A stretch of 64,000 nt of DNA, from IMG/VR virus record IMGVR_UViG_3300045988_149737. One strand, 5' to 3'. This document shows positions 1-41,650 of the stretch, piece after piece (the first letter of the stretch is position 1; each line of letters opens with the position of its first letter). The notes beneath the pieces are model-generated. The model saw nothing but the letters and a program-made list of their open reading frames with translations, was not told the DNA's origin and did no database searches. The position numbers were made by a program, and so were the translations under genes. This stretch comes from a virus. Its lineage: Duplodnaviria > Heunggongvirae > Uroviricota > Caudoviricetes.

Positions 1-303
1 TACCCAAAAACTGTCATTGAATCTATTAACGCCAAAGTAACGGCTAACCAGCGTACTCTGCAACGTCAGCAGGAAGTAGAACAACGTAAAGCTGAGGCGA
101 ATATGCTGCGTGAACAGGCTAATGGTGAAGCTGATGCTATCCGTGCTCGTGCGCAGGCAGAAGCAGATGCCATTCGTCTGCGCGGTGAAGCTCTGCGTCA
201 AAACCCGAACGTTATGGAACTGGAAGCCATCAATAAATGGAATGGCCAGTTACCGCAGTACATGACTCAAGGGGCTAACACTCCTTTCATTACAGTGAAA
301 TAA
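1..303 (+). CDS. SPFH/band-7 (prohibitin/HflK/C-like) protein, C-terminal fragment; 5' end lies outside the window
   Basis: Frame is open from nt 1 (YPKTVIESINAKVTANQRTLQRQQEVEQRKAEANMLREQANGEADAIRARAQ...); the coiled Ala/Glu/Arg-rich C-terminus resembles band-7 proteins; followed by a terminator. Confidence 0.5.
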   Translation, partial: YPKTVIESINAKVTANQRTLQRQQEVEQRKAEANMLREQANGEADAIRARAQAEADAIRLRGEALRQNPNVMELEAINKWNGQLPQYMTQGANTPFITVK

Positions 304-318
304 CTCCCCTAAAAAGTT

Positions 319-346
319 CAGGCGTCCAGTTGGACGCCTTTTTTAT
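319..346 (+). terminator. Rho-independent terminator (approximate bounds)
   Basis: GC hairpin aggcgtcca-gt-tggacgcct followed by a T-run directly after the stop at 303. Confidence 0.6.
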
Positions 347-365
347 CGCAATTATCTTATTAAGA

Positions 366-378
366 AAACAATTTGTTT
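366..378. promoter_or_regulatory. AAACAA-N-TTGTTT palindromic operator/promoter element upstream of ORF 395 (approximate bounds)
   Basis: aagaaaacaatttgtttaa about 20 nt upstream of the start; member of a dispersed motif family (see findings). Confidence 0.45.
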
Positions 379-394
379 AAAAGGATAAGAAAAC

Positions 395-820
395 ATGACA
401 GCTATTAAGAAACTCTACGATGCCGCAAACGTGGCTCTGGATGTTATTGATGATGAAGTAGCAAAAGGCTTTCCTGAACCTGATTGGGCGCATCAGCTAC
501 GAAACGCTATCGCAGAAATGACCCCACCAGATCCAACCCCCGACGAGACAGACTGGCAGCGATTCATCCGTATGTACGCTCAGGAAATAGGTCCAACGCC
601 AACGGCAGAGCAGGCAATGCTGCTGAAATACTTCAAAGAGGCGGGAGAGGATTTACCAATTGATGACTCAGCATATTGGTTCCACTGCGCATGGCGTAAG
701 TATGACGTGATATTCACACAAGGCATGGGAAGCAAAGATATGGTTGTGTGGCATCTACTCCATATAGACACAGCCGTTGACAGAGTTATTGAACAGTTTT
801 TCCCTAAACAAGAAGATTGA
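395..820 (+). CDS. hypothetical protein (141 aa)
   Basis: ORF preceded by conserved motif and an AAGGA-type RBS. Confidence 0.55.
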   Translation: MTAIKKLYDAANVALDVIDDEVAKGFPEPDWAHQLRNAIAEMTPPDPTPDETDWQRFIRMYAQEIGPTPTAEQAMLLKYFKEAGEDLPIDDSAYWFHCAWRKYDVIFTQGMGSKDMVVWHLLHIDTAVDRVIEQFFPKQED

Positions 821-875
821 TCGCCTATTCATAACTAACAAAATAAGTAAACACTAACCACAAAAGGAAAAACAC

Positions 876-1151
876 ATGAGAGTTTTAGTTCGAATCGTTA
901 CCAGCACTGTCTATGACGTGTTTCCGCTTTTTATGGTCAAAGCCGATGGCCTTAACGACGAAGAAACTGACGCGCTGATCCAGCGTATTCTCGTTGAATA
1001 TACAGGTCATGACGCTGATTCAGTGATGGTTGATGATGATGGTGTTTGTTGGCATAACGGCAACTGTTGGTACGTAGAAGAGACTCAACAAATCAGTGAT
1101 GAAGATGCCGCACATCTTGAGCGTATTTTAAGCATCAGCACTTTTGAGTGA
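876..1151 (+). CDS. hypothetical protein (91 aa)
   Basis: ORF preceded by conserved RBS context aaaggaaaaacacATG. Confidence 0.5.
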   Translation: MRVLVRIVTSTVYDVFPLFMVKADGLNDEETDALIQRILVEYTGHDADSVMVDDDGVCWHNGNCWYVEETQQISDEDAAHLERILSISTFE

Positions 1152-1366
1152 GTTTACAGTAAAATTTATATAAGTTAGTATCTACCTATCATGAAGATTT
1201 TTATTGAATACTTGTTACTCATCGTGTCAATAGCTTTTGTCATCGACTGCATTTTCACTGGTGTCATTCGTAAAGTCTTTTCCCCGGTGAACGACGTAGT
1301 CATAAACGCTTTGGCTATCGTGCTCGTATTTAATTCAGCATTTGATGTAATCAAAGAGGTGGCAGC

Positions 1367-1702
1367 ATGAAGGCCATCCCATTCGCGCTGTTGTTCCTTT
1401 CTTCGATCGTTGTGGCCGACACCACTGTTTATCAGTGTGAAATGTCTGTAGCCGACGTTAAGAATGGCGCTCTTACCGACGTCATAAAAGCACCATATGG
1501 AGCGATGGTCGTAGACAGCGGCGACCAGTTCTATGTTGTGCGTGACGATCGAGTGTTGTCATCCCCATATCTCACAAATCGTAATGGCAAATTAACCGGC
1601 GTCGGAGAAGACCACTTCGTATACAACAAATACAAGGGCTTCTATGGCGTTCACGCTTCTCAGCAAAGCTACCTTTTCGATGACTGCAAGGAGGTTGGAT
1701 AA
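1367..1702 (+). CDS. hypothetical secreted protein (111 aa) with N-terminal signal peptide
   Basis: N-terminus MKAIPFALLFLSSIVVADTT is hydrophobic and signal-peptide-like; RBS gaggtgg upstream. Confidence 0.5.
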   Translation: MKAIPFALLFLSSIVVADTTVYQCEMSVADVKNGALTDVIKAPYGAMVVDSGDQFYVVRDDRVLSSPYLTNRNGKLTGVGEDHFVYNKYKGFYGVHASQQSYLFDDCKEVG

Positions 1703-1914
1703 TGGCATTAACACTGGCAGGTCTGGAAATCGAGAAAACAAGCGGCTACTGGCGTGCTAAGGGTTTCAAGCAGCCTGGCATTCTTGAGCGTCTGGAACGT
1801 GAAGATGGGTATATCGTCCACCAGCGGCGTGAATGGCGTATGTACGATCCAGAAACAGGAAAACTGACTACAAAAGCCGGAACACTTTGGGGTCTGTTGA
1901 AGAAAATACACTAA
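1702..1914 (+). CDS. hypothetical protein (70 aa)
   Basis: ORF overlapping the previous stop (ATAATG coupling). Confidence 0.4.
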   Translation: MALTLAGLEIEKTSGYWRAKGFKQPGILERLEREDGYIVHQRREWRMYDPETGKLTTKAGTLWGLLKKIH

Positions 1915-1920
1915 TAGCAC

Positions 1921-2400
1921 CAACCACTGCGGTGAGTAGTCTGCTCACCGCATTCGTATCCAGCTCATTATCCACTGTAGTCAGTAACAAAACCTTCCTA
2001 CATATCTGCTAACCACTGTAGCGAGTAGACAGCCTTTCATTCGCATCAAACAACCACTATGGTGAGTATTGGAGTGAGATGTCCAGCGGGTATCCACTAT
2101 GGTGAGTAAGCCTTTGCTGTTTTCAGTGGATATCCACTCGCCACAGTGGATACGCTCAAAGATGAGGGCGACAACAACCACTATAGACAGTAAATTTTCC
2201 AAGATACCCAGTGACCACTAACCTCGCAGCCCTTGTTTCATCAGTGTTAGTGATCACTAACATTTAATTCAGTATTTGCATTCTACTGCCTACAGTGGTT
2301 ATCAACAGATAACGATACTCACTATAGTGGATAGCGAATTACAGATATAAGTAAGGCTCACTACAGTGGATAGTGAGCCTTACTACTAACTACAGTGGTT
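1921..2400. repeat. Iteron array downstream of repA (about 11 copies of the CCACTATAGTGGATA family, both orientations); incompatibility/control-locus-like
   Basis: Repeated ccactgcggtgagtag, ccactgtagtcagta, ccactatggtgagta, ctcactatagtggatag, ctacagtggtt at roughly 20-45 bp spacing. Confidence 0.6.
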
Positions 2401-2403
2401 GGG

Positions 2404-3459
2404 CTATTTGCGAGTCTTTGCCTTGCGCAACTCTTCGAGAAGCGCCAGTTCTTCTTTACTCAACATGACCATTTTGCCTTCTTTTTCGTCAGGCACAACG
2501 TCGATAATGTCATCTTGATTCTCATCTGGGAGGCTATATTCCGTCTCATCATTATCGATTTTTGTTGATATTTGTGCCTGGCGTAACTTTGGCCGCCTAT
2601 AGTGGATGACGAAGTAGACCGAGTTTCCGCGCTTAACTTCCGTGTAATCGAGATATCCTATCTCTCGCAGCTGTTCCATAGCCTTTCTTACCGTCGCATT
2701 CTGAGTAATAGTGCGACTTGTTAGATTAAGTCTGGCGCGTAAACGGGCTAGTGATATTGGTGCCGGATCAGGCGGCAAACTTTCAATAAAAGTATAAAGC
2801 GCCTGAGCGGATTCTTTTCTTGAGAGTTCGTTTATAGCCCGGAGTTGCAGAAGAACCTTTTTGTCGAACTGGTAGAGTTCGAAAATCTTGGGATCTGCTT
2901 TCAGTTCGACCGTATCGTGCTTGACACTATATTTTGCCGTTTGCACAAGATGCGTTACGTAAAACTCATCAGAGCCTTTGCTACGGAACGAGATGGTATT
3001 TGTGGCAATACGGCTTAGCGAACTGTCCAGGCGTTTGCGTAACTTCGCTGATGACCTGGCGGTCGGAATGCCACACAGCCTTACAAACTCAACGAACGGC
3101 AACGTGACAGTATCGCCAACGACCTTGTGTTTGGCAAACGCGTGGATTATTCCCACCCACGTTTTAAAGTCGTTATCCATATCAAGCCGAAGGCCAGAGA
3201 TCCTTATGTCTTCGTACCCTTCGGCTTTTGCCAGAGACAGCTGTTTGAGTTCAGCAGAGGCATCCATAGAGACCATTTGCCCCTTTCTTCCTCTGGATGT
3301 CGATTTCAGCGTCGGAACGAAGAGGCCCAGACGCATCAAAGCAACAGGCTGAACAGTGTTATTAGTGTTAGGAACCAACATAACAACTTCGCCTGTCTTT
3401 TTATCTGTTTCTGAAAATGCTTCAACGATCGCTATGTTTTTATTGCCGTTTTCGCTCAT
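2404..3459 (-). CDS. repA: Plasmid-type replication initiator (RepA/RepFIB-like, 351 aa)
   Basis: Sole large ORF flanked on both sides by iteron arrays, GATC clusters and an AT-rich stretch, which is the classic iteron-plasmid architecture; not checked by sequence search. Confidence 0.55.
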
Positions 3460-3499
3460 TCCAAATGTCTCTTGTTATTCGACGGCTTTGGTGGCCTTT

Positions 3500-3630
3500 G
3501 CTGATTACAGTGGATAGTAGCACTCATCACAGCGGTTATCCTACCGTCTATAGTGGTTTTTCTCCTCTCTATAGTGGTTGCTTTGCTCCCTATAGTGGAT
3601 TATTCGCTCTCTATAGTGGATATCGATCAT
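3500..3630. repeat. Origin iterons set 1 (about 6 copies of CTATAGTGGAT/T at about 21-bp spacing)
   Basis: ttacagtggata, tcacagcggttat, tctatagtggttt, tctatagtggttg, cctatagtggatt, tctatagtggata. Confidence 0.6.
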
Positions 3631-3893
3631 GTCTGAAGGCAGATGGCACAACGGTTTGAGGTGGGCGGGGATCTTATTGGGTCTTTATGGGTCTCTTTGG
3701 TTCTCTTTGTGATCTGAATTACTGGATCGGGCCTGTGGATAAAAATCAGAGGATTTCAAGAACAGGTAACTCTACTCTTCTGTGGATATTTAAGGACATA
3801 AGAATCATGACTAAGAGTAGAGTTTAAAATATATCTATGTATATCAGTATGTTAATGAAGAATTAAGTCATTAAGTTATCCATAAAAGACAAT

Positions 3894-4015
3894 GTGCTCT
3901 ACTCTCTACAGTGGATATATACAGCTCTCCAGAGTGGTTGTTTTACTCTTCATAGCGGTTATTCAGCTCTCTACAGAGGTTTCTTTGCTCTCCATAGTGG
4001 ATGGCAACACCCTTT
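3894..4015. repeat. Origin iterons set 2 (about 5 copies)
   Basis: ctacagtggatat, ccagagtggttg, tcatagcggtta, ctacagaggttt, ccatagtggatgg at about 22-bp spacing. Confidence 0.55.
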
Positions 4016-4039
4016 CAGACCAGTAACCGCAACGGCTAG

Positions 4040-4115
4040 AGGCGATCGGGGATCTCTTTGGATCTTCTATTTGATCTTACTTGGGATCTCTTATTTGGAT
4101 CTATCCAGTGGATAA
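4040..4115. repeat. GATC-rich direct repeats (GGATCTCTTTGG about 5 copies); likely Dam-methylation cluster of the origin
   Basis: ggatctctttggatcttctatttgatcttacttgggatctcttatttggatct; a related GGGTCTCTTTGG set lies near 3675-3720. Confidence 0.5.
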
Positions 4116-4202
4116 CTGGGATAAGTAAAACAGGCAAATGCAGATTAAGGTATGCCTAATGAGTTATCGTAGCATCGGCCAATAACTACTGAAAAAACGA
4201 TT

Positions 4203-4847
4203 ATGGATCTAAAACGCACGCGCTGGGTTCGTCGTCTTGAGGACGGCTCCTACACTATCGAATCAAATTCCAACCTGAATAAGCAGAAGTTACTTTGTGA
4301 TATCTGCGGTATAGCGGCGAAGTGCCCGATCTACGAAACCAGAATTAAACTTGATAAGGCTGGTGTGAACTTTCATTTGAATAGTTGTATCAGGTACGTT
4401 CCATTGCTCGCATTTCGTAAACCGATCATCGGATTGGATGCGCCCTACTTCAACACACTCCGTTCAGGAGTAACGTGGCGAGATCGTTTATCACCAGACA
4501 AACTGATTTGCCTTGTATCCGCAGATACAGGAAAAATCATTCGTTTTGGGAAAGTAGACAAGGTTTACTCAGGCCCAGTTGACGAGATGTTGCGGAAACA
4601 CAGCCGGTTTAATCACCTCTGCATGGGTGGTGAGAAAATCGAGAAGGTTGAAGAAGTGATCCGCAAATCCTACGGACACTTCCTGACCAAAGATAGCCTG
4701 CTCACTGCAATCTACATCAGACATGTAAAACGTGAGTTCGACCTTGAATACCATAGCGAAGAAGAACTGAACCTTGTCGATCCACGTCCTAAAGCTGGCG
4801 TCATAAGCATAAATGCAGCGCGTAAAAAGCCCACTGACGCGCTGTAA
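4203..4847 (+). CDS. hypothetical protein (214 aa) adjacent to the origin
   Basis: ORF only; no recognisable motif. Confidence 0.5.
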   Translation: MDLKRTRWVRRLEDGSYTIESNSNLNKQKLLCDICGIAAKCPIYETRIKLDKAGVNFHLNSCIRYVPLLAFRKPIIGLDAPYFNTLRSGVTWRDRLSPDKLICLVSADTGKIIRFGKVDKVYSGPVDEMLRKHSRFNHLCMGGEKIEKVEEVIRKSYGHFLTKDSLLTAIYIRHVKREFDLEYHSEEELNLVDPRPKAGVISINAARKKPTDAL

Positions 4848-5101
4848 CCCTCCAGATCGTATATTGGCGTAGATAGAATCTACGCCCCCTCAAAATAGCT
4901 CTCATAGCGTTCTACAGTGATCCTGTCTTATTTTTAGTCATACAGACAAGCAAAGTTGCGCCACGATAAATAGGTATATACTTACTTATAAATTTTGTAT
5001 ATTAAGGCGCTCGTTTCATTCCTAACATACCGTTATGCATAGTTGTTTACCTCCTCATTGCTCTTAGAATTTGTATCAAAATAACCACAAAGGAAAAACA
5101 C

Positions 5102-6187
5102 ATGACTTTGCCATACGGCGTCATTTCTGACTGCCACTACCACAAATGGGATGCGTTCTCCACGACGAACGCTGAGGGGCTTAACTCCAGACTTGAAATA
5201 CAGTTGGAAGCAACGAAAGAAGCAGCCATCGCCATGAAGAAGGCCGGTTGTAAGTACATGTTGGTTGCCGGTGATACATTTCACGTCCGAGGAACTGTGT
5301 CCCCTTCTGTTTTGCATTACGTAACTGAAACGTACAAGTGGATTATCAACGAGCTTGATCTGACAGTAGTAATGCTGGCCGGTAATCACGATCTTGAAAC
5401 CAACGATTCAGTATATAGCGCCAACGCAGCAGCATCGCTGAGTTCTATCGGCGTGGTAATCGTATGTGGCAAGCGCCCACACTCAATAAAAATTGGCGAT
5501 GTGACTGTCCACCTGATTAGCTGGCGTAACAATCATGCGGAGCTTATCAGCGATCTGAAAGCATTACGTAAGAGCGTAGAAGGTGATAATCATGACGTTG
5601 TTATCCATACATCCATTAACAAAGCCATTCCAACAATGCCTGACGTCGGTATCGATGCGCAGGAGTTAAAGGATATCGGCTTTCGTCTCGTGCTTAGTGG
5701 GCATTACCACAACCACAAAGAGGTCATTCCTGGAGTTATCAGTGTCGGTGCACTGACTCATCAAAATTGGGGAGATGTTGGATCTCTGGCTGGCTACATG
5801 ATCGTAAACCCGGACGGCAGTTTCAGTCACTACGAAACCAGTGCGCCTAAATTCATTAACCTGGAAGATGATGTTGCTGATGACCAAATTCGCGGCAACT
5901 ACGTGCGTTTCCGCGCCGTAATTGAGAACGATGAAGAAGGCATTAAGTACCAGAACATCCTCAAAACAATGGGTGCAAAAGGTGTCGTGTGCAACTTCAT
6001 CCGTAAGTCATCAATGATGGAAGGTACAGCCAGCACAACTGAAACCAGCAAAATCGATAGCCTGGGAGAGTCGGTATCTGCTTATTGCAAGATTGTCCAC
6101 GATACTGACGGCGGATTTGATCTGAGCAAATTGGATATTTTGTGTCAGGAAATCCTCACCGAAGCGGAGAGTTCGGAGGCTGTGTGA
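5102..6187 (+). CDS. sbcD: SbcD/Mre11-like nuclease (calcineurin-like phosphoesterase)
   Basis: Phosphoesterase motifs GDTFH, AGNHD and GHYHNH; immediately upstream of an SbcC-like ATPase. Confidence 0.8.
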   Translation: MTLPYGVISDCHYHKWDAFSTTNAEGLNSRLEIQLEATKEAAIAMKKAGCKYMLVAGDTFHVRGTVSPSVLHYVTETYKWIINELDLTVVMLAGNHDLETNDSVYSANAAASLSSIGVVIVCGKRPHSIKIGDVTVHLISWRNNHAELISDLKALRKSVEGDNHDVVIHTSINKAIPTMPDVGIDAQELKDIGFRLVLSGHYHNHKEVIPGVISVGALTHQNWGDVGSLAGYMIVNPDGSFSHYETSAPKFINLEDDVADDQIRGNYVRFRAVIENDEEGIKYQNILKTMGAKGVVCNFIRKSSMMEGTASTTETSKIDSLGESVSAYCKIVHDTDGGFDLSKLDILCQEILTEAESSEAV

Positions 6188-6416
6188 AGCAAAGTCGTTA
6201 TGGGAGCTTTCGAGACTTTGCCATCACGATGAAAAGACTTGAACGAGGCCAGACGGTGATGTTTCACAAGCCCTACCCGCCACAAGGAAATCCCGTAGCG
6301 TTTTATCTTGGAAGGTTAACAAGAAAAGGCGTATTGAGGCGCAGATCCTTCCCGGCGCATACGGAGTTCAGATTGAAAGAAGGCCAAAAGCTAACACGCG
6401 GTATCAGAGGTGTTAT

Positions 6417-8333
6417 ATGAAGTTTTTAAAGCTCCAGGTTGAGAATTTTATGGCTATCGCCAGCGCGGAGGTCGAGTTAGATCAGCGTGGTTTAGTGCTT
6501 ATTCAGGGTGTTAATAGTGATGATAGTTCCGCATCAAGTAATGGCTCTGGAAAGTCAACTCTAATGAATAGCCTGATGTGGTGTCTTTATGGCGAAACAG
6601 CTCATGGTGTGAAGGGTGACGATGTGTTGTCTACCGACCATGAAAAGAACTGTCGTGTTGCAGTAACCATCGAGGATGAAGGCAAGAGATACGCAATCAT
6701 TCGTCACCGTAAACATAAAGAGTTCAAAAATCGTCTTATCGTTCGTGGTGAAGATGGCGATATGACGAAAGGCAAAGATGCGCTGACGCAGGAGTTCGTC
6801 GAGCGTCTGATCGGTGCATCTAAAGAGGTTTTCATGGCTTCCATCTATGCGAGCCAAGAAGCTATGCCAGATTTACCTGGAATGTCCGACAAAAACCTCA
6901 AAACCATCGTAGAAGAAGCCGCTGGCGTTGACAGACTGACACGCGCCTACGCTATTGCTCGTGAGCGAGCTAATGCAGCTGCCGCACGTATGGATGTGGT
7001 TAAAACCAAATTGGAGTCGACAATCTCGACCATTGAGGCAACACAGTCAGAAATTGAGTCAGCGAAAGCCTCCTCTGAATCATGGGAGCAAGAGCGTTCT
7101 AAACGTTATGACGATGCCCTGGCTGGGCTGGCCAGTGCCGAAGTTGAGTTAACGGAAGTTGAACTTGAGATCCGCACTCTTCCCGAACAGATACGTGATA
7201 CCGAGAAGGCAATCGAAAATGAGCGCAAAAAGTTAGCCTCAAAAGAAGAACATGACGCCAAGTTGCTCAAAGTTCGTGGTGCGATAACTGATATTCGGGC
7301 AAGCATCAAAGCTACAGAAAATAGTCAGGCTGATGCAATGACCCGCGCGCGTAATTTTAAGACCAAAGCAGAAGAGGTTGGTACTAAAGTGGGATCACCA
7401 TGCCCTACTTGTGGCAAAGCCTACTGCGAAGAAGATCTATCAACGGTGAAGGAGAGTTTCATTGAACAAGCACGTCAGGAAATTGGTCAGGCTAAGACAC
7501 TTGCAGAGGCAATGGCTAAACACAAAACGAATCTTGAGAAAGCGTTAAGCATTGAGTCTGCCCTTGTTAAAACGACACCTGATGTAACGGCTATCATTGC
7601 CCGGATTGAAGAGCTTACGAAACAACTCTCATCTTTGCGTCATCGTGAGAAGGAGGTTGTTGCTATTGAGTCTCTTGTGACTCGTGCTCGTACTGAGGTC
7701 GATCGTATATCAAAAGAGATTAATCCGTTTATTGCTCTTATCGCCAGACACGAAGATAACCTGGTATCCAGTAAGTCTACCTTCAAGTCCTTAAAAGATG
7801 AGTTGAAGGCTATTCAGGAACAAACGTTGCTATTGGAAAAAGCTCGTCAGGTCTACTCTCCTGCCGGGGTGCGTTCTCATATTTTGACGTCTGTTACGCC
7901 TTTCCTGAATACACTCACAGCCGAATATCTCAATACGTTGTCTGACGGGAACATTACTGCTGAGTGGTCGACGATGGATGTCACTAAAAAAGGTGAGTAT
8001 CGCGACAAATTCAACATTAGTGTGCAGAAGAAAGGTTCAAGTAAGTCGTTCCAAACCCTCTCTGGTGGTGAGAAGCGGAAGGTTCGCATTGCGTGTTCTT
8101 TGGCATTGCAGGATCTGGTTAGTAACCGGGCGAGTAAAAACATCGATTTGTTTATCGGCGACGAAATTGACGATGCACTCGATACAGCCGGTCTTGAACG
8201 CCTCATGGGTATTCTGGAGTCCAAAGCTCGCGAGCGAGGTACTGTGCTGATTATCTCCCATAAAGAGATGAAGTCATGGTTCAGGGAAACTATTACGCTG
8301 GAAGTTAAAGAGGGGCGCAGCTATGTCGTTTAA
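6417..8333 (+). CDS. sbcC: SbcC/Rad50-like ATPase
   Basis: Walker A NGSGKST, long central coiled coil, ABC signature LSGGEKRK, Walker B DLFIGDEIDDALD. Confidence 0.8.
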   Translation: MKFLKLQVENFMAIASAEVELDQRGLVLIQGVNSDDSSASSNGSGKSTLMNSLMWCLYGETAHGVKGDDVLSTDHEKNCRVAVTIEDEGKRYAIIRHRKHKEFKNRLIVRGEDGDMTKGKDALTQEFVERLIGASKEVFMASIYASQEAMPDLPGMSDKNLKTIVEEAAGVDRLTRAYAIARERANAAAARMDVVKTKLESTISTIEATQSEIESAKASSESWEQERSKRYDDALAGLASAEVELTEVELEIRTLPEQIRDTEKAIENERKKLASKEEHDAKLLKVRGAITDIRASIKATENSQADAMTRARNFKTKAEEVGTKVGSPCPTCGKAYCEEDLSTVKESFIEQARQEIGQAKTLAEAMAKHKTNLEKALSIESALVKTTPDVTAIIARIEELTKQLSSLRHREKEVVAIESLVTRARTEVDRISKEINPFIALIARHEDNLVSSKSTFKSLKDELKAIQEQTLLLEKARQVYSPAGVRSHILTSVTPFLNTLTAEYLNTLSDGNITAEWSTMDVTKKGEYRDKFNISVQKKGSSKSFQTLSGGEKRKVRIACSLALQDLVSNRASKNIDLFIGDEIDDALDTAGLERLMGILESKARERGTVLIISHKEMKSWFRETITLEVKEGRSYVV

Positions 8334-9066
8334 ATTAAGCCGCTCGCAGTTTTTGCAGGTATTTGCAGTGATGCAGTCGATAAAACTGATCAATGGGCAT
8401 ACTTCCAATGGTGCGGCTCCACGTATTCTGTGGGGCAGCAACAATATTGACGGAGTACAATTCGCCGCGTTGCTTGGTCTAATATCCGAGACACCATTGA
8501 TGCAAAGTTTGAAATCACTACCACCTGGATGTATTGCGCCGATCCTGATTAATCCTTTTGTTGAGGGGGGATATCTTCCCAACGTCGGGCCTGGGTTTAT
8601 TGCATCCCATGAAACTGAAGATCTTAACATTAATAGCGAAGGGTTCTTTGGGGGAATGGGTGCGCATCACTGTATGGCTTTCACGAACCTTATTCGACTT
8701 GCCAATAAGCGGGTGGATAGTTTGGCATCGCCAGGTGATGCTTTTACTGGTTTCCTTATCCAAAGGAGGGATAAAAAGTACAGTGCGGACAAACTACAGT
8801 TTGTTGGTAAGTATGGGGAAATGGTGGAAATCGAACTTCAGCTCCCTCATGTTTTAGCAAACGATAGTGCAGACAGTCGGAGGCTGTTGGGCATCATGCG
8901 TCATTTCATAGCAAGTGGCGTTAAACATGCCGTAGATAAACGTGTCACGCAGGAAAATGAGTATTCAGACTTTGCAAACTATCCCCAACCAACGTTGCAA
9001 ACGGCAATAGTAACCAATTCGTTGGAGGCGAGATTATTGGAAAACCCTATATGGGGAACATGGTAA
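8323..9066 (+). CDS. hypothetical protein (247 aa)
   Basis: ORF translationally coupled to sbcC. Confidence 0.5.
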   Translation: MSFKLSRSQFLQVFAVMQSIKLINGHTSNGAAPRILWGSNNIDGVQFAALLGLISETPLMQSLKSLPPGCIAPILINPFVEGGYLPNVGPGFIASHETEDLNINSEGFFGGMGAHHCMAFTNLIRLANKRVDSLASPGDAFTGFLIQRRDKKYSADKLQFVGKYGEMVEIELQLPHVLANDSADSRRLLGIMRHFIASGVKHAVDKRVTQENEYSDFANYPQPTLQTAIVTNSLEARLLENPIWGTW

Positions 9067-9075
9067 GGAGACTAT

Positions 9076-9645
9076 ATGAGTAAAAAAATCAGCGTAGTTG
9101 GTGTTGATCCCTCAATGAGCAACTTTGGGCTTGCTGTGGGCACTTTAGACCTTGAAACGGACGAACTTGAGATTCACGGCCTTACTCTTGTTGAGACTAA
9201 AGCGGGGAGTAACAAAAAGACCGTTCGTGTGAACAGTGACGATCTGCGCCGTGCCAGTGAAATATGGCGTGTTGCGAAGCCAATCATTGATAAGGCAAAT
9301 ATGGTTTTTTGTGAGCTACCGGTTGGGAGCCAAAACTCTCGTTCGCAGACGTCTTACGGTATTTGCATCGGTGTACTTGCGTGCGTAGATAAGCCATTGA
9401 TCCAGGTTACTCCAAACGAAATTAAACATTTTATCGGCAATAAACTTACAACATCGAAAGAAGAGATTATCCAGTGGGCTACGAAAAAACACCCTAAAGC
9501 ACCGTGGCTGCGTCGTAAGCAATCTGGACAGGATGTTCTCGTGAACAAAAACGAACATTTGGCTGATGCGGTGGCTGCCATCCATACCGGTATGCAAACA
9601 GATCAGTTTCGCCAGGTGCGCGATGTTCTCAAGTCTCTCATTTGA
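9076..9645 (+). CDS. RuvC-like Holliday junction resolvase
   Basis: RNase H-fold motifs VVGVDPS...FGLAV, CELPVG, EHLADAVAA (D/E/D catalytic pattern). Confidence 0.6.
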   Translation: MSKKISVVGVDPSMSNFGLAVGTLDLETDELEIHGLTLVETKAGSNKKTVRVNSDDLRRASEIWRVAKPIIDKANMVFCELPVGSQNSRSQTSYGICIGVLACVDKPLIQVTPNEIKHFIGNKLTTSKEEIIQWATKKHPKAPWLRRKQSGQDVLVNKNEHLADAVAAIHTGMQTDQFRQVRDVLKSLI

Positions 9646-9718
9646 TCTCATTGATAGGTAAGTGCTTATCTATTAATATGGGCCACTAAATATAGTGGCC
9701 CTCTTTATTTGGTGATAC

Positions 9719-12034
9719 ATGATAAGCATCGTAAAACGTAACGGCCAAACAGAGCCGTTATCCGAAGATAAATACAACCGCGTCGTAATGTATGGCGTAG
9801 AAGACATTCGTGGCGTAAGCGCATCCGCTGTAGCAATGGGAGCTGCGGCCAGCATTTTTGATGGGATTACCACCAGCCAGTTGCATGAGGCTTTGGTTAA
9901 ATCTGCCGCTGATTTGATCTCACCAGAAGCACCAAATTACTCACAGGTGGCTGCCCGCCTGAACATTTTTAAAATTCGCAAAGATGCCTTCGGTCGTTAC
10001 GACTATCCGAACTTCTACCAACACATTGTCAAGAACGTTAACAAGGGCGTTTATGACAAGGATTTGCTGACACATTATTCATTTGAAGAGATCGAAGAAC
10101 TCGGCAATTACATTAAGCCTAAACGTGACGATCTTTTTGGCTATGCAGCTACGGTGCAATTGCAAAGCAAATACCTCGTTCAAAACCGCGTTACTGGTGA
10201 GATTCATGAGGGGCCGCAACATATCTATATGCTGGTAGGCATGTGTCTGTTCCAGAATTGGGAAGACGACTGCGCTGGCAAAACACGTATGGAGATGGTC
10301 AAAGGTTTCTATGACGTTACAAGTACGTTCAAACTGTCTCTGCCCACACCAATCATGGCCGGCGTCCGTACTCCAACCCGTCAGTTCTCCAGTTGTGTGC
10401 TGATTGAGTCTGGCGATAGTCTGAAAGGGATTAGTGCAGCTTCAGCCGCAATTATCGACTACGTTTCACGTCGTGCTGGAATTGGTATTGGTTTTGGCCG
10501 TATCCGTGCGCTGGGCAGCGAGATCCGCAATGGTGAAGCCACACATACCGGAGTTACTCCATTCCTGAAGCATTTCCAGACGGCTGTTAAATCTTGTTCG
10601 CAAGGTGGTGTTCGTGGTGGCGCAGCAACAGCGTTTTACCCGATCTGGCATCTTGAAGTTGAAAGTCTGCTGGTGGTGAAAAATAACCGTGGTATTGATG
10701 AAAACCGCGTTCGCCATCTTGATTACGGCGTCATGAGTAACCGTCTGATGTACCGTCGACTCGTCAGAAGCGAGAACATCACTCTGTTCAGCCCGCATGA
10801 TGTGCCTGATATGTACGAAGCCTTCTTCACAGACCAGGATCTGTTTGAAAAGCTGTACCATGAATACGAAGCCGATGATTCAATTCGCAAGAAGTCAGTA
10901 CCTGCCATTGAGCTGTTCTCATCTCTGATGCAGGAACGAGCGTCCACGGGCCGAATTTATATTGCGAACGTCGATCATATTAACGAGCATGGCGCTTTCA
11001 TTCCTGCTCTTGCACCTGTTCGCCAGTCAAACCTGTGCATGGAGATCACTCTACCCACTCGTCCACTGGCATTTACCGACGACCCGAACGGTGAGATCGC
11101 GCTTTGCACTTTATCCGCTTTTAACCTCGGAGCCATCCGTTCACTGGAGTCTCTTAAAGAGGTGGCGTTCTATGCCGTTGCTGCACTGGATTCGTTACTG
11201 GATTATCAAGACTATCCGATGGAGGCAGCCGAAGTGCCAGCCAAAGCTCGCCGTAGCCTGGGAATCGGTGTAACCAACTTTGCTTATTACCTGGCAAAGA
11301 ATGGCGTTCGTTATTCTGATACCGCTGGCAATAAACTGGTGCATGAAACGTTCGAAGCTATCCAGTATTACCTTCTTGATGCCAGCTGCCGACTTGCTGA
11401 AGCAAAAGGTGAGTGTGACTGGTTTGAGCAGACCAAGTACGCAATTGGTCAGTTGCCGATCGACCATTATCGTTCTTCATTAGACGAAAGTGGCGAAACC
11501 AACTTTGAGTTAAAGATGCCGTGGGAAGAACTGCGTGAACGTATTGCAAAATACGGTCTTCGCAACTCCACACTGACGGCACAAATGCCATGCGAGACTT
11601 CCAGCCAGATCACTAATTCCACCAACGGCATCGAGCCGCCTCGTGGCCCGGTGTCGGTGAAATCTTCTAAGGACGGCATCGTTAAGATGGTCGTGCCTGA
11701 GTTTGAAAAACTGAAGGAACAGTATGAATACCTGTGGGATATGCCGGACAACCGCGGCTATCTGACAAAGGTGGCGATCATCCAGAAGTTCTTTGACCAG
11801 GCTATTTCAGCCAATACCAACTATGACCCTTCTCGCTTTGAAGGCGATAAAGTCCCAATGATGACGCTACTGTCAGATTTGCTTCTCGCCTACAAGATGG
11901 GAGTTAAAACGCTTTACTACCACAACACCAGAGATGGTGCAGGAAAGCGTGATGACGACGAAGCGCAGAATCCACTTACGCAAGCTGTAGCCGTCGAGCC
12001 AGAAGATGAGTGCGACGGAGCCTGCAAAATCTGA
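9719..12034 (+). CDS. nrdA: Ribonucleoside-diphosphate reductase large subunit (class I)
   Basis: 771 aa; N-terminal ATP-cone-like region and long conserved stretches of class Ia alpha subunit; followed by an nrdB-like gene. Confidence 0.9.
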   Translation: MISIVKRNGQTEPLSEDKYNRVVMYGVEDIRGVSASAVAMGAAASIFDGITTSQLHEALVKSAADLISPEAPNYSQVAARLNIFKIRKDAFGRYDYPNFYQHIVKNVNKGVYDKDLLTHYSFEEIEELGNYIKPKRDDLFGYAATVQLQSKYLVQNRVTGEIHEGPQHIYMLVGMCLFQNWEDDCAGKTRMEMVKGFYDVTSTFKLSLPTPIMAGVRTPTRQFSSCVLIESGDSLKGISAASAAIIDYVSRRAGIGIGFGRIRALGSEIRNGEATHTGVTPFLKHFQTAVKSCSQGGVRGGAATAFYPIWHLEVESLLVVKNNRGIDENRVRHLDYGVMSNRLMYRRLVRSENITLFSPHDVPDMYEAFFTDQDLFEKLYHEYEADDSIRKKSVPAIELFSSLMQERASTGRIYIANVDHINEHGAFIPALAPVRQSNLCMEITLPTRPLAFTDDPNGEIALCTLSAFNLGAIRSLESLKEVAFYAVAALDSLLDYQDYPMEAAEVPAKARRSLGIGVTNFAYYLAKNGVRYSDTAGNKLVHETFEAIQYYLLDASCRLAEAKGECDWFEQTKYAIGQLPIDHYRSSLDESGETNFELKMPWEELRERIAKYGLRNSTLTAQMPCETSSQITNSTNGIEPPRGPVSVKSSKDGIVKMVVPEFEKLKEQYEYLWDMPDNRGYLTKVAIIQKFFDQAISANTNYDPSRFEGDKVPMMTLLSDLLLAYKMGVKTLYYHNTRDGAGKRDDDEAQNPLTQAVAVEPEDECDGACKI

Positions 12035-12134
12035 CATATGGTGGGGTATATCCCCACCTTATCTTTGATTTGTAAGCCTTGTTTAAACACATAAGATAAC
12101 AACTTGTTTAAACACATCAAAAAAGGAAAAACAC

Positions 12135-13277
12135 ATGTCATATTCAACGTTCCGTTTGGGTGCTAATGATGCAACCAAAGAGCCTATGTTCCTCGGACAA
12201 TCTGTCAACGTGGCACGTTACGATCAGCAAAAATACCGTGATTTTGAAAAGTTGATTGAACGTCAATTGTCTTTCTTCTGGCGGCCGGAAGAAGTTGATA
12301 TTTCGAGCGATCGTATCGACTTCAACACGAAGCTGCGAGACCACGAACGTCACATTTTTCTGAGCAATCTCCGTTATCAAACGTTACTCGATTCAGTTCA
12401 GGGACGTAGCCCAAATGCAACGCTGCTGCCGCTTATCTCTATTCCTGAACTGGAAACGTGGGTTGAAACATGGTCTTTCTCTGAGACTATCCATAGCCGC
12501 AGCTACACCCACATTATTCGTGGCATGGTGGACGATCCGAGCATTGTTTTTGACGGTATTGTTACGGATGAAGAAATCATCAACCGAGCGATCAGTATCT
12601 CTGCTGAATATGACAGGCTTTATGGGATGACCTGCGAGCGCCAGTCGTTAGGTGAGAAAGAGTTTGAACGTCTGTACGTAAATGAATATGGCTGGGAGCC
12701 ATACCCTTTGCATCGTCAGCTTTTCCGCACGTTGGTGTCCATTAATGCGCTTGAGGCGATCCGTTTCTATGTAAGTTTTGCATGTACGTTTGCCTTTGGC
12801 GAACGGAAGTTGCTTGAGGGTAACACCAAAATTATGCGCTTTATTGCCCGTGATGAAGCTCTGCATTGCGAAGGAACTGAACGCATGATCCGCTTCATGC
12901 GTACCGGTCGCGAAGGTTTATTGTGGAAAGAGATTGCTGCTGATGAAGAAAACGTCATTTACGACACCATGAAATCAGTCGCCGAACAAGAAATGAACTG
13001 GGCAGACTATCTCTTCAAAGACGGTTCGATGATTGGTTTAAACGCGGATATTCTGAAGACCTATGTAAAATACCGAACCAATCTGGCTATGAATCGTCTT
13101 GGCCTGAAGGCTTTATTTCCAGAAGTTACCACAGATCCGCTGGTCTGGATGAACAAGTGGTTGTTAACCGACACACTGCAAATTGCACCACAAGAGGCAG
13201 AGCAAAGCACATATCTGGTAGGTCAGATCGATTCTACCGTGGATAAGGCTTCTCTAAGCCAGTTTGCAGACCTGTAA
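12135..13277 (+). CDS. nrdB: Ribonucleoside-diphosphate reductase small subunit (class I)
   Basis: 380 aa, di-iron/tyrosyl radical family features; directly downstream of nrdA. Confidence 0.85.
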
Positions 13278-13354
13278 ACCGATACAAAGCATTATGTGGC
13301 CTGGCAACGCTGGGTCACAATGGATCACAAGAATTAAGAAGGAACAAAACTAGC

Positions 13355-14224
13355 ATGAACTTTACCAAACTGACTGACCACCTGAAACTTGCCACCGATC
13401 GACTCATTGGATTTAAGCCAGAACCATATGAGTTGCATGAAGGCCATGGTGTAGCCACTGAAAGTATTTACAAGATGGTCGATCAGTTTCATGAACTCTT
13501 CCAGCATCCGAGACGCGTTATGCCGACACCAGAGCTGCTTCGTCTCCGTGCAAGCCTGATTCATGAAGAAGCTGTAGTGGAAGGGATTCCAGCCGCAATG
13601 AATGGGGATATTGAGCAACTGCTGGATGCAATGGCCGACTTTTTATACGTTGGTGTTGGTACGATGGTCTCCATCAAAGGTGGTATTTCTACCGGCATGA
13701 CCTATTACACGCAGGAACAGAGCATTGATCGCTTTATGCAGACAATTTTTGTGCCCGGTAACACTGTTTTCGATGATATGGCAATGCCATTTCAGGAAGC
13801 TCGTGAGGCGTCATGTATGCTCGAAGAGCTGGCAGATAAACTTGAGAAGAAGGCTGTTAAGGATTCTGAGCTGATTCAGGAACTGCGCCGTGTAATGAAC
13901 AAAATCTATGTGGCGTGCATGATGACTTATCGACTGGCTGATTTCCTCGGTATCAATGTCGTCGAGCTGGTTGGCGAAATTCATCGGTCTAACATGACAA
14001 AATTATGGCCTGCTGATGTTGAGGAACGTCGCCAGGCTGTGGCCAACTGCAAATACGACTCTTCAGATCTGGGATTCCGCCATGCTGATGGCACCGATAA
14101 GATGATCGGTTTTCGAATTTCCGATGGAAAGATTCTGAAGTCTCCAACCTATAGTGATGTCGATTTATCCTCCTTTGTTGAGCAAGCTAAAGCCTCAGCA
14201 ATGTACGGAATGATCAAAAAATAA
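13355..14224 (+). CDS. hypothetical protein; possible all-alpha NTP pyrophosphohydrolase (MazG/dimeric-dUTPase-like)
   Basis: Real ORF in the nucleotide-metabolism cluster; EGHG...ELLRLRASLIHEEAVVEG and EQLLDAMADFLYV resemble MazG/HisE-type motifs (weak, by eye). Confidence 0.45.
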   Translation: MNFTKLTDHLKLATDRLIGFKPEPYELHEGHGVATESIYKMVDQFHELFQHPRRVMPTPELLRLRASLIHEEAVVEGIPAAMNGDIEQLLDAMADFLYVGVGTMVSIKGGISTGMTYYTQEQSIDRFMQTIFVPGNTVFDDMAMPFQEAREASCMLEELADKLEKKAVKDSELIQELRRVMNKIYVACMMTYRLADFLGINVVELVGEIHRSNMTKLWPADVEERRQAVANCKYDSSDLGFRHADGTDKMIGFRISDGKILKSPTYSDVDLSSFVEQAKASAMYGMIKK

Positions 14225-14394
14225 TTGTAGGTAGTTATCTATCTATGTATATTTAACATGCGTAATAAAACTCTGGAATGACTATTCGTTTTGGTGGCCT
14301 ATGGCCACCATTTTTTTATCTGTCTGGTCTTGTTCTCTCAATGAATGTAAACTCACATGATGAATAAGTAATTACTTATCTTTGTGAGGTTTTT

Positions 14395-15498
14395 GTGTCA
14401 CTACTTTTGAATCGAGAGCATACGAACGGTCAGGTAACAAACGCATCGTATGCAAAAGTTATTGAGACGGTGCTTAAAAGCGGCGTGCAGGCTGATGATC
14501 GCACAGGCACTGGTACTTTAAGCACCTGCTACGTTCCCTCTTATTACATGCTTACTGGTGGGACTGTGCCGCTTATTTCTGGAAAGGCGGTAAATCTTAA
14601 GCCACTGCTTGTCGAACTTGAGTGGTATCTGAAAGGCACGGGCAACATCCAATTTCTCAAGGATAACGGCGTTAAGATTTGGGATGCATGGGCCGATGAG
14701 AATGGCGATTTGGGGCCGGTTTACGGTAAGCAGTGGCGTCGATGGGAAGATACCCGCATCGTGAGCCATAGTGAATATCTGAGCAAGATCGCTACTTTCC
14801 GTGAACGCGGGTACAAAGTCGAGGGATACCTGGGTATCAGTGAAGATCGCGTAGTGCTGTCCCGTGAAATCGATCAGCTACAGCGTATTGTCGATACACT
14901 GCGCACGAACCCTACCGATCGTCGCATCATGCTTAACGCATGGAACGTAGGCGAGCTTGAGGATATGAAACTGCCACCTTGCCACTTTGTCTTCTCTTTG
15001 TGGAGTCGTGAGCTGGATTTTGAAACCCGTTTAACGATGGCAACTGACATTGGTCTTCAACACAGTCGCCTCGGTTACGAGTCTATCTACACCAAGATGC
15101 TATACGATCTGGAGGTGGACGGCAGTGTTACTGAAGCTGAACTGGATGAACTTGGAATCCCCAAACGCATCCTCAACTCCTGCCTCGTACAGCGTAGCGT
15201 AGACACTTTTGTTGGTATGCCATTCAATATTGCTGGCTATGGCATTCTCACTCATTTTCTCGCGAAGATTACGGGTCACATGGCCGGTGCATTTGTGCAT
15301 TTTGGCTTTGACGTGCATTTGTACAACAACCACATGGAAGGTGTGTGTGAGCTAATGAAACGACAGGCTCCAGAGCATTCAGATCCGGTCGTTATTTTCC
15401 CTCATGAATGGTCAGAGTTGGATGATTTCAAATGGGACGAGGTTTTAATTCTTGGCTATGACCCTCTATCGTGGATCAAGGTTCCAGTGGCGGTGTGA
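14395..15498 (+). CDS. thyA: Thymidylate synthase (ThyA family), atypically long, GTG start
   Basis: Motifs GPVYGKQWRRW, PPCHFVF (catalytic Cys), DTFVGMPFNIAGY; about 45-aa insertion after the catalytic Cys region. Confidence 0.8.
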   Translation: MSLLLNREHTNGQVTNASYAKVIETVLKSGVQADDRTGTGTLSTCYVPSYYMLTGGTVPLISGKAVNLKPLLVELEWYLKGTGNIQFLKDNGVKIWDAWADENGDLGPVYGKQWRRWEDTRIVSHSEYLSKIATFRERGYKVEGYLGISEDRVVLSREIDQLQRIVDTLRTNPTDRRIMLNAWNVGELEDMKLPPCHFVFSLWSRELDFETRLTMATDIGLQHSRLGYESIYTKMLYDLEVDGSVTEAELDELGIPKRILNSCLVQRSVDTFVGMPFNIAGYGILTHFLAKITGHMAGAFVHFGFDVHLYNNHMEGVCELMKRQAPEHSDPVVIFPHEWSELDDFKWDEVLILGYDPLSWIKVPVAV

Positions 15499-19229: not shown

Positions 19230-19823
19230 ATGATTGCAGCCGAAAAAATCAAACAGCGAAAGCGCGACAACTCTCTTCGTGACCTCTGGAGAACACCTGA
19301 CTGGCTGTTTTCTGCCATTCAACGTTATCTTGGGGTGACATTTGATGTTGACGTTGCCTGCAACAAGGACAATGCAAAGCTGCCTAATTTCATAGGCGTT
19401 GAGCGTGATGCTTTGAAATCTGAATGGGGACAGCCAGGTACAATTGCCTTCCTCAATCCCCCCTACTCCAAAATCTCCCCCTGGATTGATGCGGCTATAC
19501 GTGAGCAGGCTCGCGGAGTTACAACAGTGATGCTAATTCCTCAATCCCTAGATACAAAGTGGTATGAGCGTGCAACAGAGTGTGCGAATGAGACGATTAT
19601 TCTGTCTGGTGGCCGCGTAGCGTTTGTCGAGCCTGACGTCAATCTGGGTCAGGTAGAAGTAAACATCAACCCAGGTGGCAGTATGCTCGTTGTTTTTCGA
19701 GGATTCTGTCAGGACGCTGGGCACTCTATAAGCAAGATCCCTTTGGACGTCATGAAAAGTCTGGGAGGGTATGATCCTGCGAATGTGATCAGGAAAAAAA
19801 GACCATCAAAGAAGGCTGCTTAG
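19230..19823 (+). CDS. dam: DNA N6-adenine methyltransferase (phage Dam family)
   Basis: N-terminal WRTPDWLF, catalytic NPPYS motif, size about 200 aa typical of phage Dam. Confidence 0.75.
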   Translation: MIAAEKIKQRKRDNSLRDLWRTPDWLFSAIQRYLGVTFDVDVACNKDNAKLPNFIGVERDALKSEWGQPGTIAFLNPPYSKISPWIDAAIREQARGVTTVMLIPQSLDTKWYERATECANETIILSGGRVAFVEPDVNLGQVEVNINPGGSMLVVFRGFCQDAGHSISKIPLDVMKSLGGYDPANVIRKKRPSKKAA

Positions 19824-27531: not shown

Positions 27532-27650
27532 ACGCTACAAATCCTTCTGCGTGAATAAATAAAGGCCATAAGTTGTGGCCTTAAATAAATTGTTTTCTGC
27601 CTTTTCTTATTTGTGAAAATAACCACAACTAGAAAACAACGGAGTTAAGA

Positions 27651-28292
27651 ATGTCTAGTATTTCCGAAGCACATATGTTCGCCGCTGGCGCTCATGGTGG
27701 CGTTGGTCAGAAAAGAAAATATACCGGCGAAAACTACATCAACCACCCGGTTGCTGTCCGAGAGATTGTTGCATTGCATGACGGAACCGTGGAGATGCAA
27801 ATCGCGGCGCTTCTGCATGATGTGGTCGAAGACACCCATGTAACCATAGAGATGGTTCGTGATCACTTCGGTGAGCGCGTAGCTGAAATGGTTCAGGCTC
27901 TGACCAACATTGCAAGGCCAGAAGACGGCAATCGAATACAGCGTTTCATCATCAATGTCCGGGAGCTGGAGCAAAATCTCGACATGCAGACGCGCATGAT
28001 CAAGCTGGCTGACCTGCTCGACAATACCTCTTCTATCGTGAGTCGCGATCCTGAGTTTTCAGCTATCTACCTTGCAGAGAAAGAGCTGATGCTGGACGTA
28101 CTTTTTAACGGGAAGGAGATTGGTGCCAACGCTGATGTTGTCGAGTACATGGAGAGGATAGGTATAGAACACCCGTTGTTATTAAGCGCAAAGGCGAAAG
28201 TCACTGAAGGTATTGCGCTTCTGAAACCGGTACACATCAAACGTTATGAAAAACACAAATCGCTGATCTGGAGCGCGTGGGAGGCTGCATGA
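27651..28292 (+). CDS. RelA/SpoT-homologue HD-domain hydrolase (small alarmone hydrolase, SAH/Mesh1-like)
   Basis: Hallmark RSH hydrolase motifs YINHPVAV and AALLHDVVEDT; 213 aa, no synthetase domain. Confidence 0.75.
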   Translation: MSSISEAHMFAAGAHGGVGQKRKYTGENYINHPVAVREIVALHDGTVEMQIAALLHDVVEDTHVTIEMVRDHFGERVAEMVQALTNIARPEDGNRIQRFIINVRELEQNLDMQTRMIKLADLLDNTSSIVSRDPEFSAIYLAEKELMLDVLFNGKEIGANADVVEYMERIGIEHPLLLSAKAKVTEGIALLKPVHIKRYEKHKSLIWSAWEAA

Positions 28293-28831
28293 AGGTCGAA
28301 AAAATAGATGTTCTTTCCTTTGTGCTGACGGATCTGGAACGCCTCGATCCGGTTCGAGTGATGATTGAAAACTACGAACCTGGTAAGGGAAGAATCACCA
28401 TCACCTGCTACGGAAAAGCGTGGACTGCGGCTTGGTTTGCTATGGGCGGTGATGATGTGCAGACGTTCATTAAGCGAGTTAGCAACGATTATCTAATCGA
28501 CAATTTCGACCCTCAACTGCTAAGCACGGTCGACGATGACAACGATGCAAATCTGCTTTTCGTAAAGTCAGAAATCATAAAGTTACGAAGAGAGAGAGAA
28601 ATAGACGCCGTACTGGCTCGCGAAATGTGGGACGAGGCGGAAAACGCCGATGACGTAAAAGAAAGCTGCTGTTGTTTCGGCGTCGGTAACAAACTGCTGA
28701 ATCTCTTTGGTGATGATCCGTGGTATGCCGACTGGCCAACGGTACCAAACCCGAAATACCAGTATCTGGAACGCATTGTGAACGCGGTACGTGAAGGGCT
28801 GAAAGAGTTAGATAAGTTAGAGGCATCGTAA
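28277..28831 (+). CDS. hypothetical protein (184 aa)
   Basis: ORF overlapping the hydrolase stop. Confidence 0.5.
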   Translation: MGGCMKVEKIDVLSFVLTDLERLDPVRVMIENYEPGKGRITITCYGKAWTAAWFAMGGDDVQTFIKRVSNDYLIDNFDPQLLSTVDDDNDANLLFVKSEIIKLRREREIDAVLAREMWDEAENADDVKESCCCFGVGNKLLNLFGDDPWYADWPTVPNPKYQYLERIVNAVREGLKELDKLEAS

Positions 28832-41039: not shown

Positions 41040-41170
41040 AGGGCCAGAAACGGCCCTTTCTCTATAGCCACCAGCTGCCGCAGGGAAATTTTCAGAAACG
41101 GCGAGGAACGCATTCATGAGCCGACGGGGAACGGCCAGGATTTTTTCGGGAAACGGCTGCATTCGCCTTT
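41040..41170. repeat. Second array of GGGAAACGG-type direct repeats (about 5 units)
   Basis: cagaaacggcc, cagggaaatttt, cagaaacggcg, cggggaacggcc, cgggaaacggctg. Confidence 0.45.
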
Positions 41171-41539: not shown

Positions 41540-41650
41540 TTTTATGTTGTTGGAGTGAGTCAAAGACAATAAAAAAGCGCCATCATTGGCGCGTTATGGT
41601 GGAAGTATTAGAAACGAAAAAAGCGCCCATAGTGGGCGCTAGATTTTATT
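41540..41650. terminator. Cluster of three A-tract/hairpin/T-tract terminators at a convergent transcription boundary
   Basis: agcgcgtctgtggcgtt, agcgccatcattggcgcg, agcgcccatagtgggcgct each flanked by A and T runs; a fourth copy near 41881-41915. Confidence 0.5.

Follow-up and report, generated by a model that had tools for sequence, protein, structure and literature searches.

Positions 1920-4115 of the window, by which the whole 64,000-nucleotide stretch of viral DNA under analysis is meant, very probably constitute a low-copy theta replicon by which an SSU5-like (Cyrano/pLF82-type) siphophage persists in E. coli as a circular plasmid prophage. A plasmid replicon of RepFIB/P1-type architecture inside a phage genome had been proposed from the letters of this DNA (the original prediction), and the order of the elements was found to match both the annotated P1 region and a classical RepFIB replicon. 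The replicon is already known: the phage-plasmid family to which it belongs has been described, its replicon is catalogued, and that of Cyrano/pLF82 is a near-twin.

By its sequence, the window is assigned to an SSU5-like (Cyrano/pLF82-type) temperate siphophage phage-plasmid, of which it forms a part. It is collinear over its whole length with Escherichia phage Cyrano (OV696614), with 92.7-98.6% identity in the long aligned blocks (about 98% in the largest two) and with replacement of a few segments. Window positions 1-49577 correspond to Cyrano 58230-108379 and positions 49578-64000 to Cyrano 1-14427, so that the window spans the junction of the record ends. Over the 2.3 kb at 1900-4200 the identity is 99.9% to Cyrano and 83% to Salmonella phage SSU5 and to pHCM2. 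The replicons of Cyrano/pLF82, SSU5, pHCM2 and pMT1 agree with that of the window in their flanking genes, in all three iteron arrays and in where the GATC sites lie, and no substantive difference separates the Cyrano/pLF82 replicon from the one analysed here. In E. coli LF82, Cyrano is known as plasmid pLF82, an SSU5-like phage-plasmid with 5.5 copies per cell, for which repA was the probe in the plasmid-copy-number qPCR; it makes virions, and ciprofloxacin induction raises virion production 39-fold (PMC9928086). The replicon's neighbours are phage DNA-metabolism genes (SbcCD-like, RuvC and RNR). In the window, phage packaging and structural genes share one molecule with the plasmid replicon, among them the following, both recognised by Pfam and PHROGs:

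50344-51600: large terminase (TerL)
54136-55011: major head protein

The replicon itself is composed of these features, given in order of position:

1920-2402, both orientations: downstream iteron array, 11 copies at a spacing of 29-48 bp with one 112-bp gap
1922, 1970, 2011, 2052, 2092 and 2176, minus strand: cores of the downstream array
2139, 2288, 2320, 2359 and 2388, plus strand: cores of the downstream array
2343-2391, minus strand: stable hairpin on a 15-bp stem, next to the repA stop on its 3' side (-26.3 kcal/mol, z -5.6)
2404-3459, minus strand: repA, a 351-aa ORF with an ATG start, encoding a Rep3-family iteron-binding initiator with WH1 and WH2
2595-2607, plus strand: iteron-like 13-mer GCCTATAGTGGAT within the repA coding sequence
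3498-3622, plus strand: proximal iteron array, next to repA on its upstream side, with six copies 21-22 bp apart
3626-3599, minus strand: promoter-like TCGATA-16-AATAAT, a weak consensus match (9/12), at the proximal array
3665-3742: decayed proximal GATC-repeat region, with GGGTCT/GGTTCT/GATCT repeats and then a perfect DnaA box
3734-3742, minus strand: perfect DnaA box TTATCCACA
3781-3789: DnaA-box-like site with one mismatch
3781-3895: AT-rich spacer between the two origin modules
3855-3828, minus strand, facing repA: promoter-like TTAACA-16-TATATT in the AT-rich spacer
3898-4003, plus strand: distal iteron array, five copies at 21-23-bp spacing
4044-4101: GATC cluster, six sites in 58 bp at a spacing of 7-13 bp, the counterpart of the five Dam sites in P1 oriR
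4107-4115 (element 4101-4115), minus strand: DnaA-box-like site TTATCCACT with one mismatch, bordering the distal module on its outer side

A RepA-like ORF was central to the original prediction, and the protein encoded at 2404-3459 indeed carries both Rep3 domains, each above its curated Pfam cut-off: Rep3_N/WH1 at E 1.3e-10 with 42.2 bits against a cut-off of 22.4, and Rep3_C/WH2 at E 1.3e-4 with 22.5 bits against a cut-off of 21.1. A PHROGs search placed it in PHROG 775 (phrog_775) at E 2.1e-145. BLASTP, the check put forward for RepA, matched plasmid initiators. In direct comparisons, the window RepA shares 49% identity with P1 RepA over nearly the entire P1 protein (E 5e-93) and, along 329 aa, 60% with the RepFIB-type RepA of p1658/97, a conjugative plasmid (E 2e-142). 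The homology rests on Pfam, PHROGs and direct BLASTP because phmmer against PDB sequences returned no match at E up to 1 and NCBIfam gave no meaningful match. By sequence relationship, RepA is thus placed in the RepFIB/P1 RepA family as a two-winged-helix Rep3 initiator, and its annotation should read initiator, not "replication helicase". Among closer relatives, RepA is 99.7% identical in Cyrano, about 91% in SSU5 and in pHCM2-type plasmids, and 90.7% in Yersinia pestis pMT1; across Escherichia, Salmonella and Yersinia, repA is conserved at at least 90%, along with all three iteron arrays. Relative to P1 RepA, the window protein has an acidic C-terminal extension of 58 aa. The same RepA family also drives conjugative, non-phage IncFIB plasmids.

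Around repA lie 22 copies of an iteron of about 19 bp, distributed over three arrays and with an in-register consensus of about ACTCNCTAYAGTGGWTA. When CTMTAYAGYGGWT was searched with up to two mismatches, 33 matches were found in the 64 kb, 22 of them within 1970-4113; shuffled sequence gave 10.1 ± 3.5 matches, and none of 100 shuffles reached 33. Tandem Repeats Finder, run on the whole window, returned four rows only, all in 3547-4102 and comprising the two 21-bp arrays and the GATC repeat. A chance origin of the repeats was ruled out by the shuffle statistics together with Tandem Repeats Finder. The two upstream iteron sets that had been anticipated at 3500-3630 and 3894-4015 correspond to the arrays at 3498-3622 and 3898-4003, both above chance, and the downstream array anticipated at 1921-2400 was recovered as the 11 copies at 1920-2402. 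All eleven upstream iterons, proximal and distal, share one orientation at a spacing of 21-23 bp. The iterons are presumed RepA binding sites by analogy with related replicons. The proximal array corresponds to P1 incC and is the likely site of the repA promoter/operator; the downstream array corresponds, as a control array, to P1 incA or to RepFIB E-K. The intragenic iteron-like 13-mer recurs at the equivalent place in repA of pMT1 and pHCM2. The hairpin at the end of repA overlaps iteron copies and may be the terminator of the repA transcript. No RNA genes were detected in the window with Rfam at gathering thresholds or with ARAGORN, so antisense-RNA copy control is not indicated by known families.

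The GATC-rich repeats and the AT-rich stretch of the original prediction were located as well. Nowhere in the window are GATC sites denser than in the six at 4044-4101, every other 80-bp stretch holding at most three, and the identical six sites are present in pMT1 and pHCM2. The element at 4101-4115 contains the 13-mer CTATCCAGTGGAT, and an identical 13-mer stands at the DnaA-box end of P1 oriR. In the proximal region three GATC sites are retained, at 3670, 3711 and 3725 (span 3670-3728). Within the spacer, positions 3788-3887 have 23% GC against a window mean of 46.5%, the second lowest 100-bp GC value in the window, and the spacer is a candidate DNA-unwinding element.

Two tandem copies of a complete P1-oriR-like module occupy 3498-3742 and 3898-4115. 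Each comprises a DnaA box, GATC repeats and five or six iterons, and the two align end to end with about 72-75% identity. The distal module retains its six GATC sites and by itself holds every P1-oriR element, whereas the proximal module has three GATC sites and decayed repeats. The duplication is also found in pMT1 and pHCM2, with matching GATC positions. Furthermore, a 182-kb plasmid of Pantoea agglomerans, whose RepA is 68.8% identical, has a similar two-module layout with similar iterons (AACCACTATAGCGAG). Pairwise identities between modules of the window lineage and of the Pantoea plasmid are all about 0.6-0.75, without an orthology signal on one ancient event. A single origin module was found in P1, classical RepFIB, the E. 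coli phage PhiR41_1 and a Klebsiella phage-plasmid. Our best guess assigns the role of main origin to the distal copy, and the proximal copy would act mainly as operator.

The comparison with P1 provides the closest guide to how the parts are arranged. In the P1 record a DnaA site comes first, then five Dam sites, then the five iterons of incC, which are 21 bp apart and enclose PrepA, then repA and finally incA, annotated with nine iterons at a spacing of about 31 or 41 bp. Sequence scans revealed the P1 order also in classical RepFIB (p1658/97), in PhiR41_1 and in the Klebsiella phage-plasmid, and in each of them repA is preceded by about five 21-bp iterons, with five or six GATC sites and one or two DnaA boxes ahead of those. 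PhiR41_1 and the Klebsiella phage-plasmid are SSU5-like, and the RepA of PhiR41_1 is 50% identical to the window RepA. The window resembles P1 in having DnaA boxes, GATC sites, iterons spaced at 21 bp, repA and a downstream array at a spacing of about 30-40 bp in equal order, and in belonging to a temperate phage maintained as a plasmid. It differs from P1 in its iteron (ACTCNCTAYAGTGGWTA, compared with GATGTGTGCTGGAGGGAAA in P1), in the C-terminal extension of RepA, in the tandem duplication of the origin module and in a downstream array that is not followed by a parAB operon. Its carrier is an SSU5-like siphovirus, whereas P1 is of the myovirus type.

Likeness to RepFIB (P307, F and pO157, compared via p1658/97) goes further in the protein, in which RepA similarity extends into the C-terminal extension. 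The two also share upstream origin iterons (B-D' in RepFIB), downstream control iterons (E-K), a DnaA box and a GATC cluster, and typing tools assign the identical IncFIB label. Classical RepFIB differs in an iteron core of about ACAGCTTATAT, in having one origin module and in being carried by conjugative plasmids rather than by phage. In FIB replicons the downstream iteron block controls the upstream origin iterons (PMC11983097).

A mechanism can be proposed by analogy with P1 and RepFIB, in which RepA monomers bound to the upstream iterons would act with host DnaA to open the adjacent AT-rich/GATC region, whereupon the host helicase would load and theta replication would follow. RepA bound to the repA-proximal iterons would repress its own promoter, and the downstream array would titrate RepA and handcuff the origin iterons, resulting in a low copy number. 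Initiation at P1 oriR is licensed and timed by Dam methylation; here too, methylation of the GATC cluster by Dam probably licenses initiation and, through sequestration in the hemimethylated state, times re-initiation. From homology we infer the binding of RepA to the repeats, the position of the promoter and the dependence on Dam. The relatives also encode their own helicase, primase and Pol III alpha, and a split between plasmid-mode and lytic-mode replication is an assumption.

That the element is kept as a plasmid was examined through the occurrence of the replicon in sequenced bacteria. Of 5,426 complete E. coli genomes, 129 carry it, and its 172 occurrences all lie on plasmids and none on a chromosome. 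Plasmid-prophage maintenance, as originally proposed, is borne out by these 172 of 172 plasmid locations together with the phage genes on the same molecule, and the extrachromosomal location, which was to be checked, was plasmid-only in the complete E. coli genomes. In PLSDB, replicon DNA is present in 339 plasmid records, 318 of them non-mobilizable, from Escherichia, Enterobacter, Yersinia, Salmonella, Citrobacter and other hosts, and Y. pestis pMT1 retains a replicon of the same kind. Replicon typing, also suggested at the outset, gave IncFIB for the relatives: in the inspected records, which are non-mobilizable plasmids of about 96-115 kb, IncFIB is the sole replicon type listed (MOB-suite). 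PlasmidFinder has a named type, IncFIB(pLF82-PhagePlasmid), that is in published use. A survey of phage-plasmids assigns most of those with a replicon type to IncFIB and to the SSU5 group (PMC7969092), and according to a 2025 preprint the SSU5 (IncFIB) replication gene is included in typing tools.

By iteron specificity, the replicon lies outside strict IncFIB, as the core in p1658/97 is about ACAGCTTATAT and that in the window is AYAGTGGWT. Since the iteron cores differ, the label reflects RepA similarity rather than demonstrated incompatibility and should not be taken to mean incompatibility with F-type RepFIB; as judged from the sequences, real incompatibility with classical IncFIB is doubtful.

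Other roles for the region have to be weighed against plasmid maintenance. The RepA-iteron region could be a vestigial or weak secondary replicon, like RepFIB in F, with another origin, for example one using the element's own helicase, primase and polymerase, maintaining the element. This would agree with the full set of replication proteins encoded by the relatives and with the poor function of F's own RepFIB, which is due to a weak translation start (PMC11983097). The window repA, however, is intact with an ATG start and conserved at at least 90% with all three arrays in Escherichia, Salmonella and Yersinia, pMT1 of Y. pestis keeps the same replicon, and the plasmids of the relatives list IncFIB as their only replicon type; a vestigial replicon is therefore most improbable. 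It is likewise very unlikely that the module is mainly an origin for lytic (vegetative) phage replication. The downstream copy-control array and the autoregulatory iterons are hallmarks of low-copy plasmid control, and non-phage conjugative IncFIB plasmids run on the same RepA family. P1 uses its RepA/oriR as its plasmid origin, and its lytic growth proceeds from another origin (oriL/repL). A lytic role would nevertheless fit the location among phage DNA-metabolism genes (SbcCD-like, RuvC and RNR), as well as the 39-fold rise of Cyrano virions on induction and the use of repA as qPCR probe (PMC9928086).

Within the preferred reading of a plasmid replicon, the two modules may be understood in another way, namely as one bipartite origin in which RepA on both arrays melts the 23%-GC spacer at 3788-3887 and not the GATC repeats as in P1. 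Of all 100-bp stretches in the window, only one is richer in AT than this spacer, which is bracketed by iteron arrays of the same orientation and by DnaA boxes, and both modules are kept in pMT1, pHCM2 and the Pantoea plasmid. But P1, classical RepFIB, PhiR41_1 and the Klebsiella phage-plasmid have a single module and no such spacer, P1 and RepFIB being known working replicons, and in the window the distal module has all P1-oriR elements while the GATC repeats of the proximal module are decaying, so that a bipartite origin appears unlikely, though deserving some weight. The broader proposal, that the tandem modules are a functional bipartite or dual origin throughout the pLF82/SSU5/pHCM2/pMT1 lineage and in the Pantoea plasmid, is held only tentatively and with a minor share of our belief. 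If true, copy control or initiation in this subfamily could follow a different logic, for instance through cis-handcuffing of one origin array to the other or through melting of the intervening AT-rich spacer. No description of the tandem origin duplication was found in the searched literature; an earlier description is possible, the original pMT1 reports lying outside that search. The duplicated origin module is a modest lead for specialists in plasmid replication.

As a discovery, the replicon as a whole carries little weight, since surveys and PlasmidFinder already cover SSU5-like phage-plasmids with their IncFIB-type RepA replicon. The practical value lies in correct annotation, by which the window should be labelled an SSU5-like phage-plasmid.

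The absence of any integrase, from which plasmid maintenance had been argued in part, holds within the 64-kb window and fails for the element type, as Cyrano and its relatives encode a PF00589 tyrosine recombinase. In the Cyrano annotation, the part collinear with the window lists no integrase or recombinase apart from the RuvC resolvase, nor did any ORF in the two largest replaced segments match an integrase. The Cyrano gene lies beyond the window:

Cyrano 41090-42193: tyrosine recombinase CYRAN_44 (PF00589), adjoining a putative repressor, about 17-20 kb before the window start

The missing integrase is an artefact of the window limits. Other relatives with the window-type replicon also encode a tyrosine recombinase, and in 252 complete E. 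coli genomes the recombinase gene is always on plasmids, some with the window-type replicon, and on no chromosome. The plasmid conclusion stands despite the recombinase because the recombinase is never on a chromosome. An integrating prophage was rejected, the replicon and the recombinase being without a chromosomal copy in the 5,426 genomes. P1 carries Cre, and the absence of an integrase is not a defining trait of phage-plasmids; by analogy with Cre in P1, the recombinase more likely resolves multimers.

A Dam-family methyltransferase had been predicted to pair with the GATC cluster, and the ORF was identified as such:

19230-19823, plus strand: phage-type N6-adenine DNA methyltransferase (Pfam Dam PF05869, E 2.5e-38; phrog_111, E 1.6e-65)

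Dam is supplied by the host E. coli. The phage-type enzyme, encoded outside the replicon proper, may act on the GATC sites of the replicon, and a pairing of the element's own Dam with the GATC cluster is plausible from the P1 precedent.

The entire origin module, comprising a DnaA box, GATC repeats and iterons, is present as a tandem duplicate in the replicon, at 3498-3742 and 3898-4115 of the window, and the corresponding duplicate in the comparison locus L012 lies at 1370-1960. pMT1, pHCM2 and the Pantoea agglomerans 182-kb plasmid have this tandem duplication too, whereas P1, classical RepFIB, PhiR41_1 and the Klebsiella phage-plasmid lack it. Two genes flank the replicon:

4203-4847, + strand: 214-aa protein, PHROG 2105, annotated as ASCH in phage Cyrano
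1702-1914, + strand: 70-aa protein, assigned to PHROG 804, with the annotation "P1 Cra"

Neither was matched in Pfam, and both are kept alongside the replicon in pMT1, pHCM2 and PhiR41_1. An iteron-like 13-mer was found within the repA coding sequence at 2595-2607, and pMT1 and pHCM2 carry it at the same position. A further small site falls where the downstream iteron array is interrupted by a gap of 112 bp:

2245-2260: perfect 16-bp palindrome GTTAGTGATCACTAAC, including one GATC site

The palindrome, which pMT1 and pHCM2 do not conserve, could be a regulator-binding site.

RefSeq phage records and PHROG 775 both give the name "replication helicase" to homologues of RepA, P1 RepA (NC_005856) among them. 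Because these homologues are winged-helix initiators, the label is an annotation error, and one that is propagating. Cyrano (Escherichia phage OV696614/plasmid pLF82), the near-identical and collinear relative of the window, encodes a recombinase beyond the stretch covered by the window:

Cyrano 41090-42193: tyrosine recombinase, adjoining a putative repressor

Among 5,426 complete E. coli genomes, 252 carry this gene, exclusively on plasmids, whereas the window's replicon was found in only 129, which indicates that at least two RepA/iteron types occur on the same phage backbone; in PhiR41_1 the gene neighbourhood is the same and RepA is 50% identical to that of the window.

The partition system of the element is not obvious, since P1 carries a parAB operon after its downstream iterons whereas the window has none there, the sole small ParA-type ATPase of Cyrano is encoded outside the window, and the following pair is distant from the replicon:

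46095-47461, + strand: two neighbouring ParB_N-domain proteins (E 3.3e-13 and 1.5e-8)

Two segments of the window differ from Cyrano: 27625-28878 does not align to that phage, and 42860-44215 (1.35 kb) is without a counterpart in it. A domain match was obtained in each:

27651-28292, + strand: HD_4-domain protein, 213 aa (HD_4 match, E 1.2e-18)
43170-43772, - strand: Flag1_repress ORF, 200 aa (Pfam match, E 2.5e-84)

Flag1_repress denotes the FljA-type repressor of phase-1 flagellin, and the ORF may be phage-plasmid cargo that turns host flagellin expression off.
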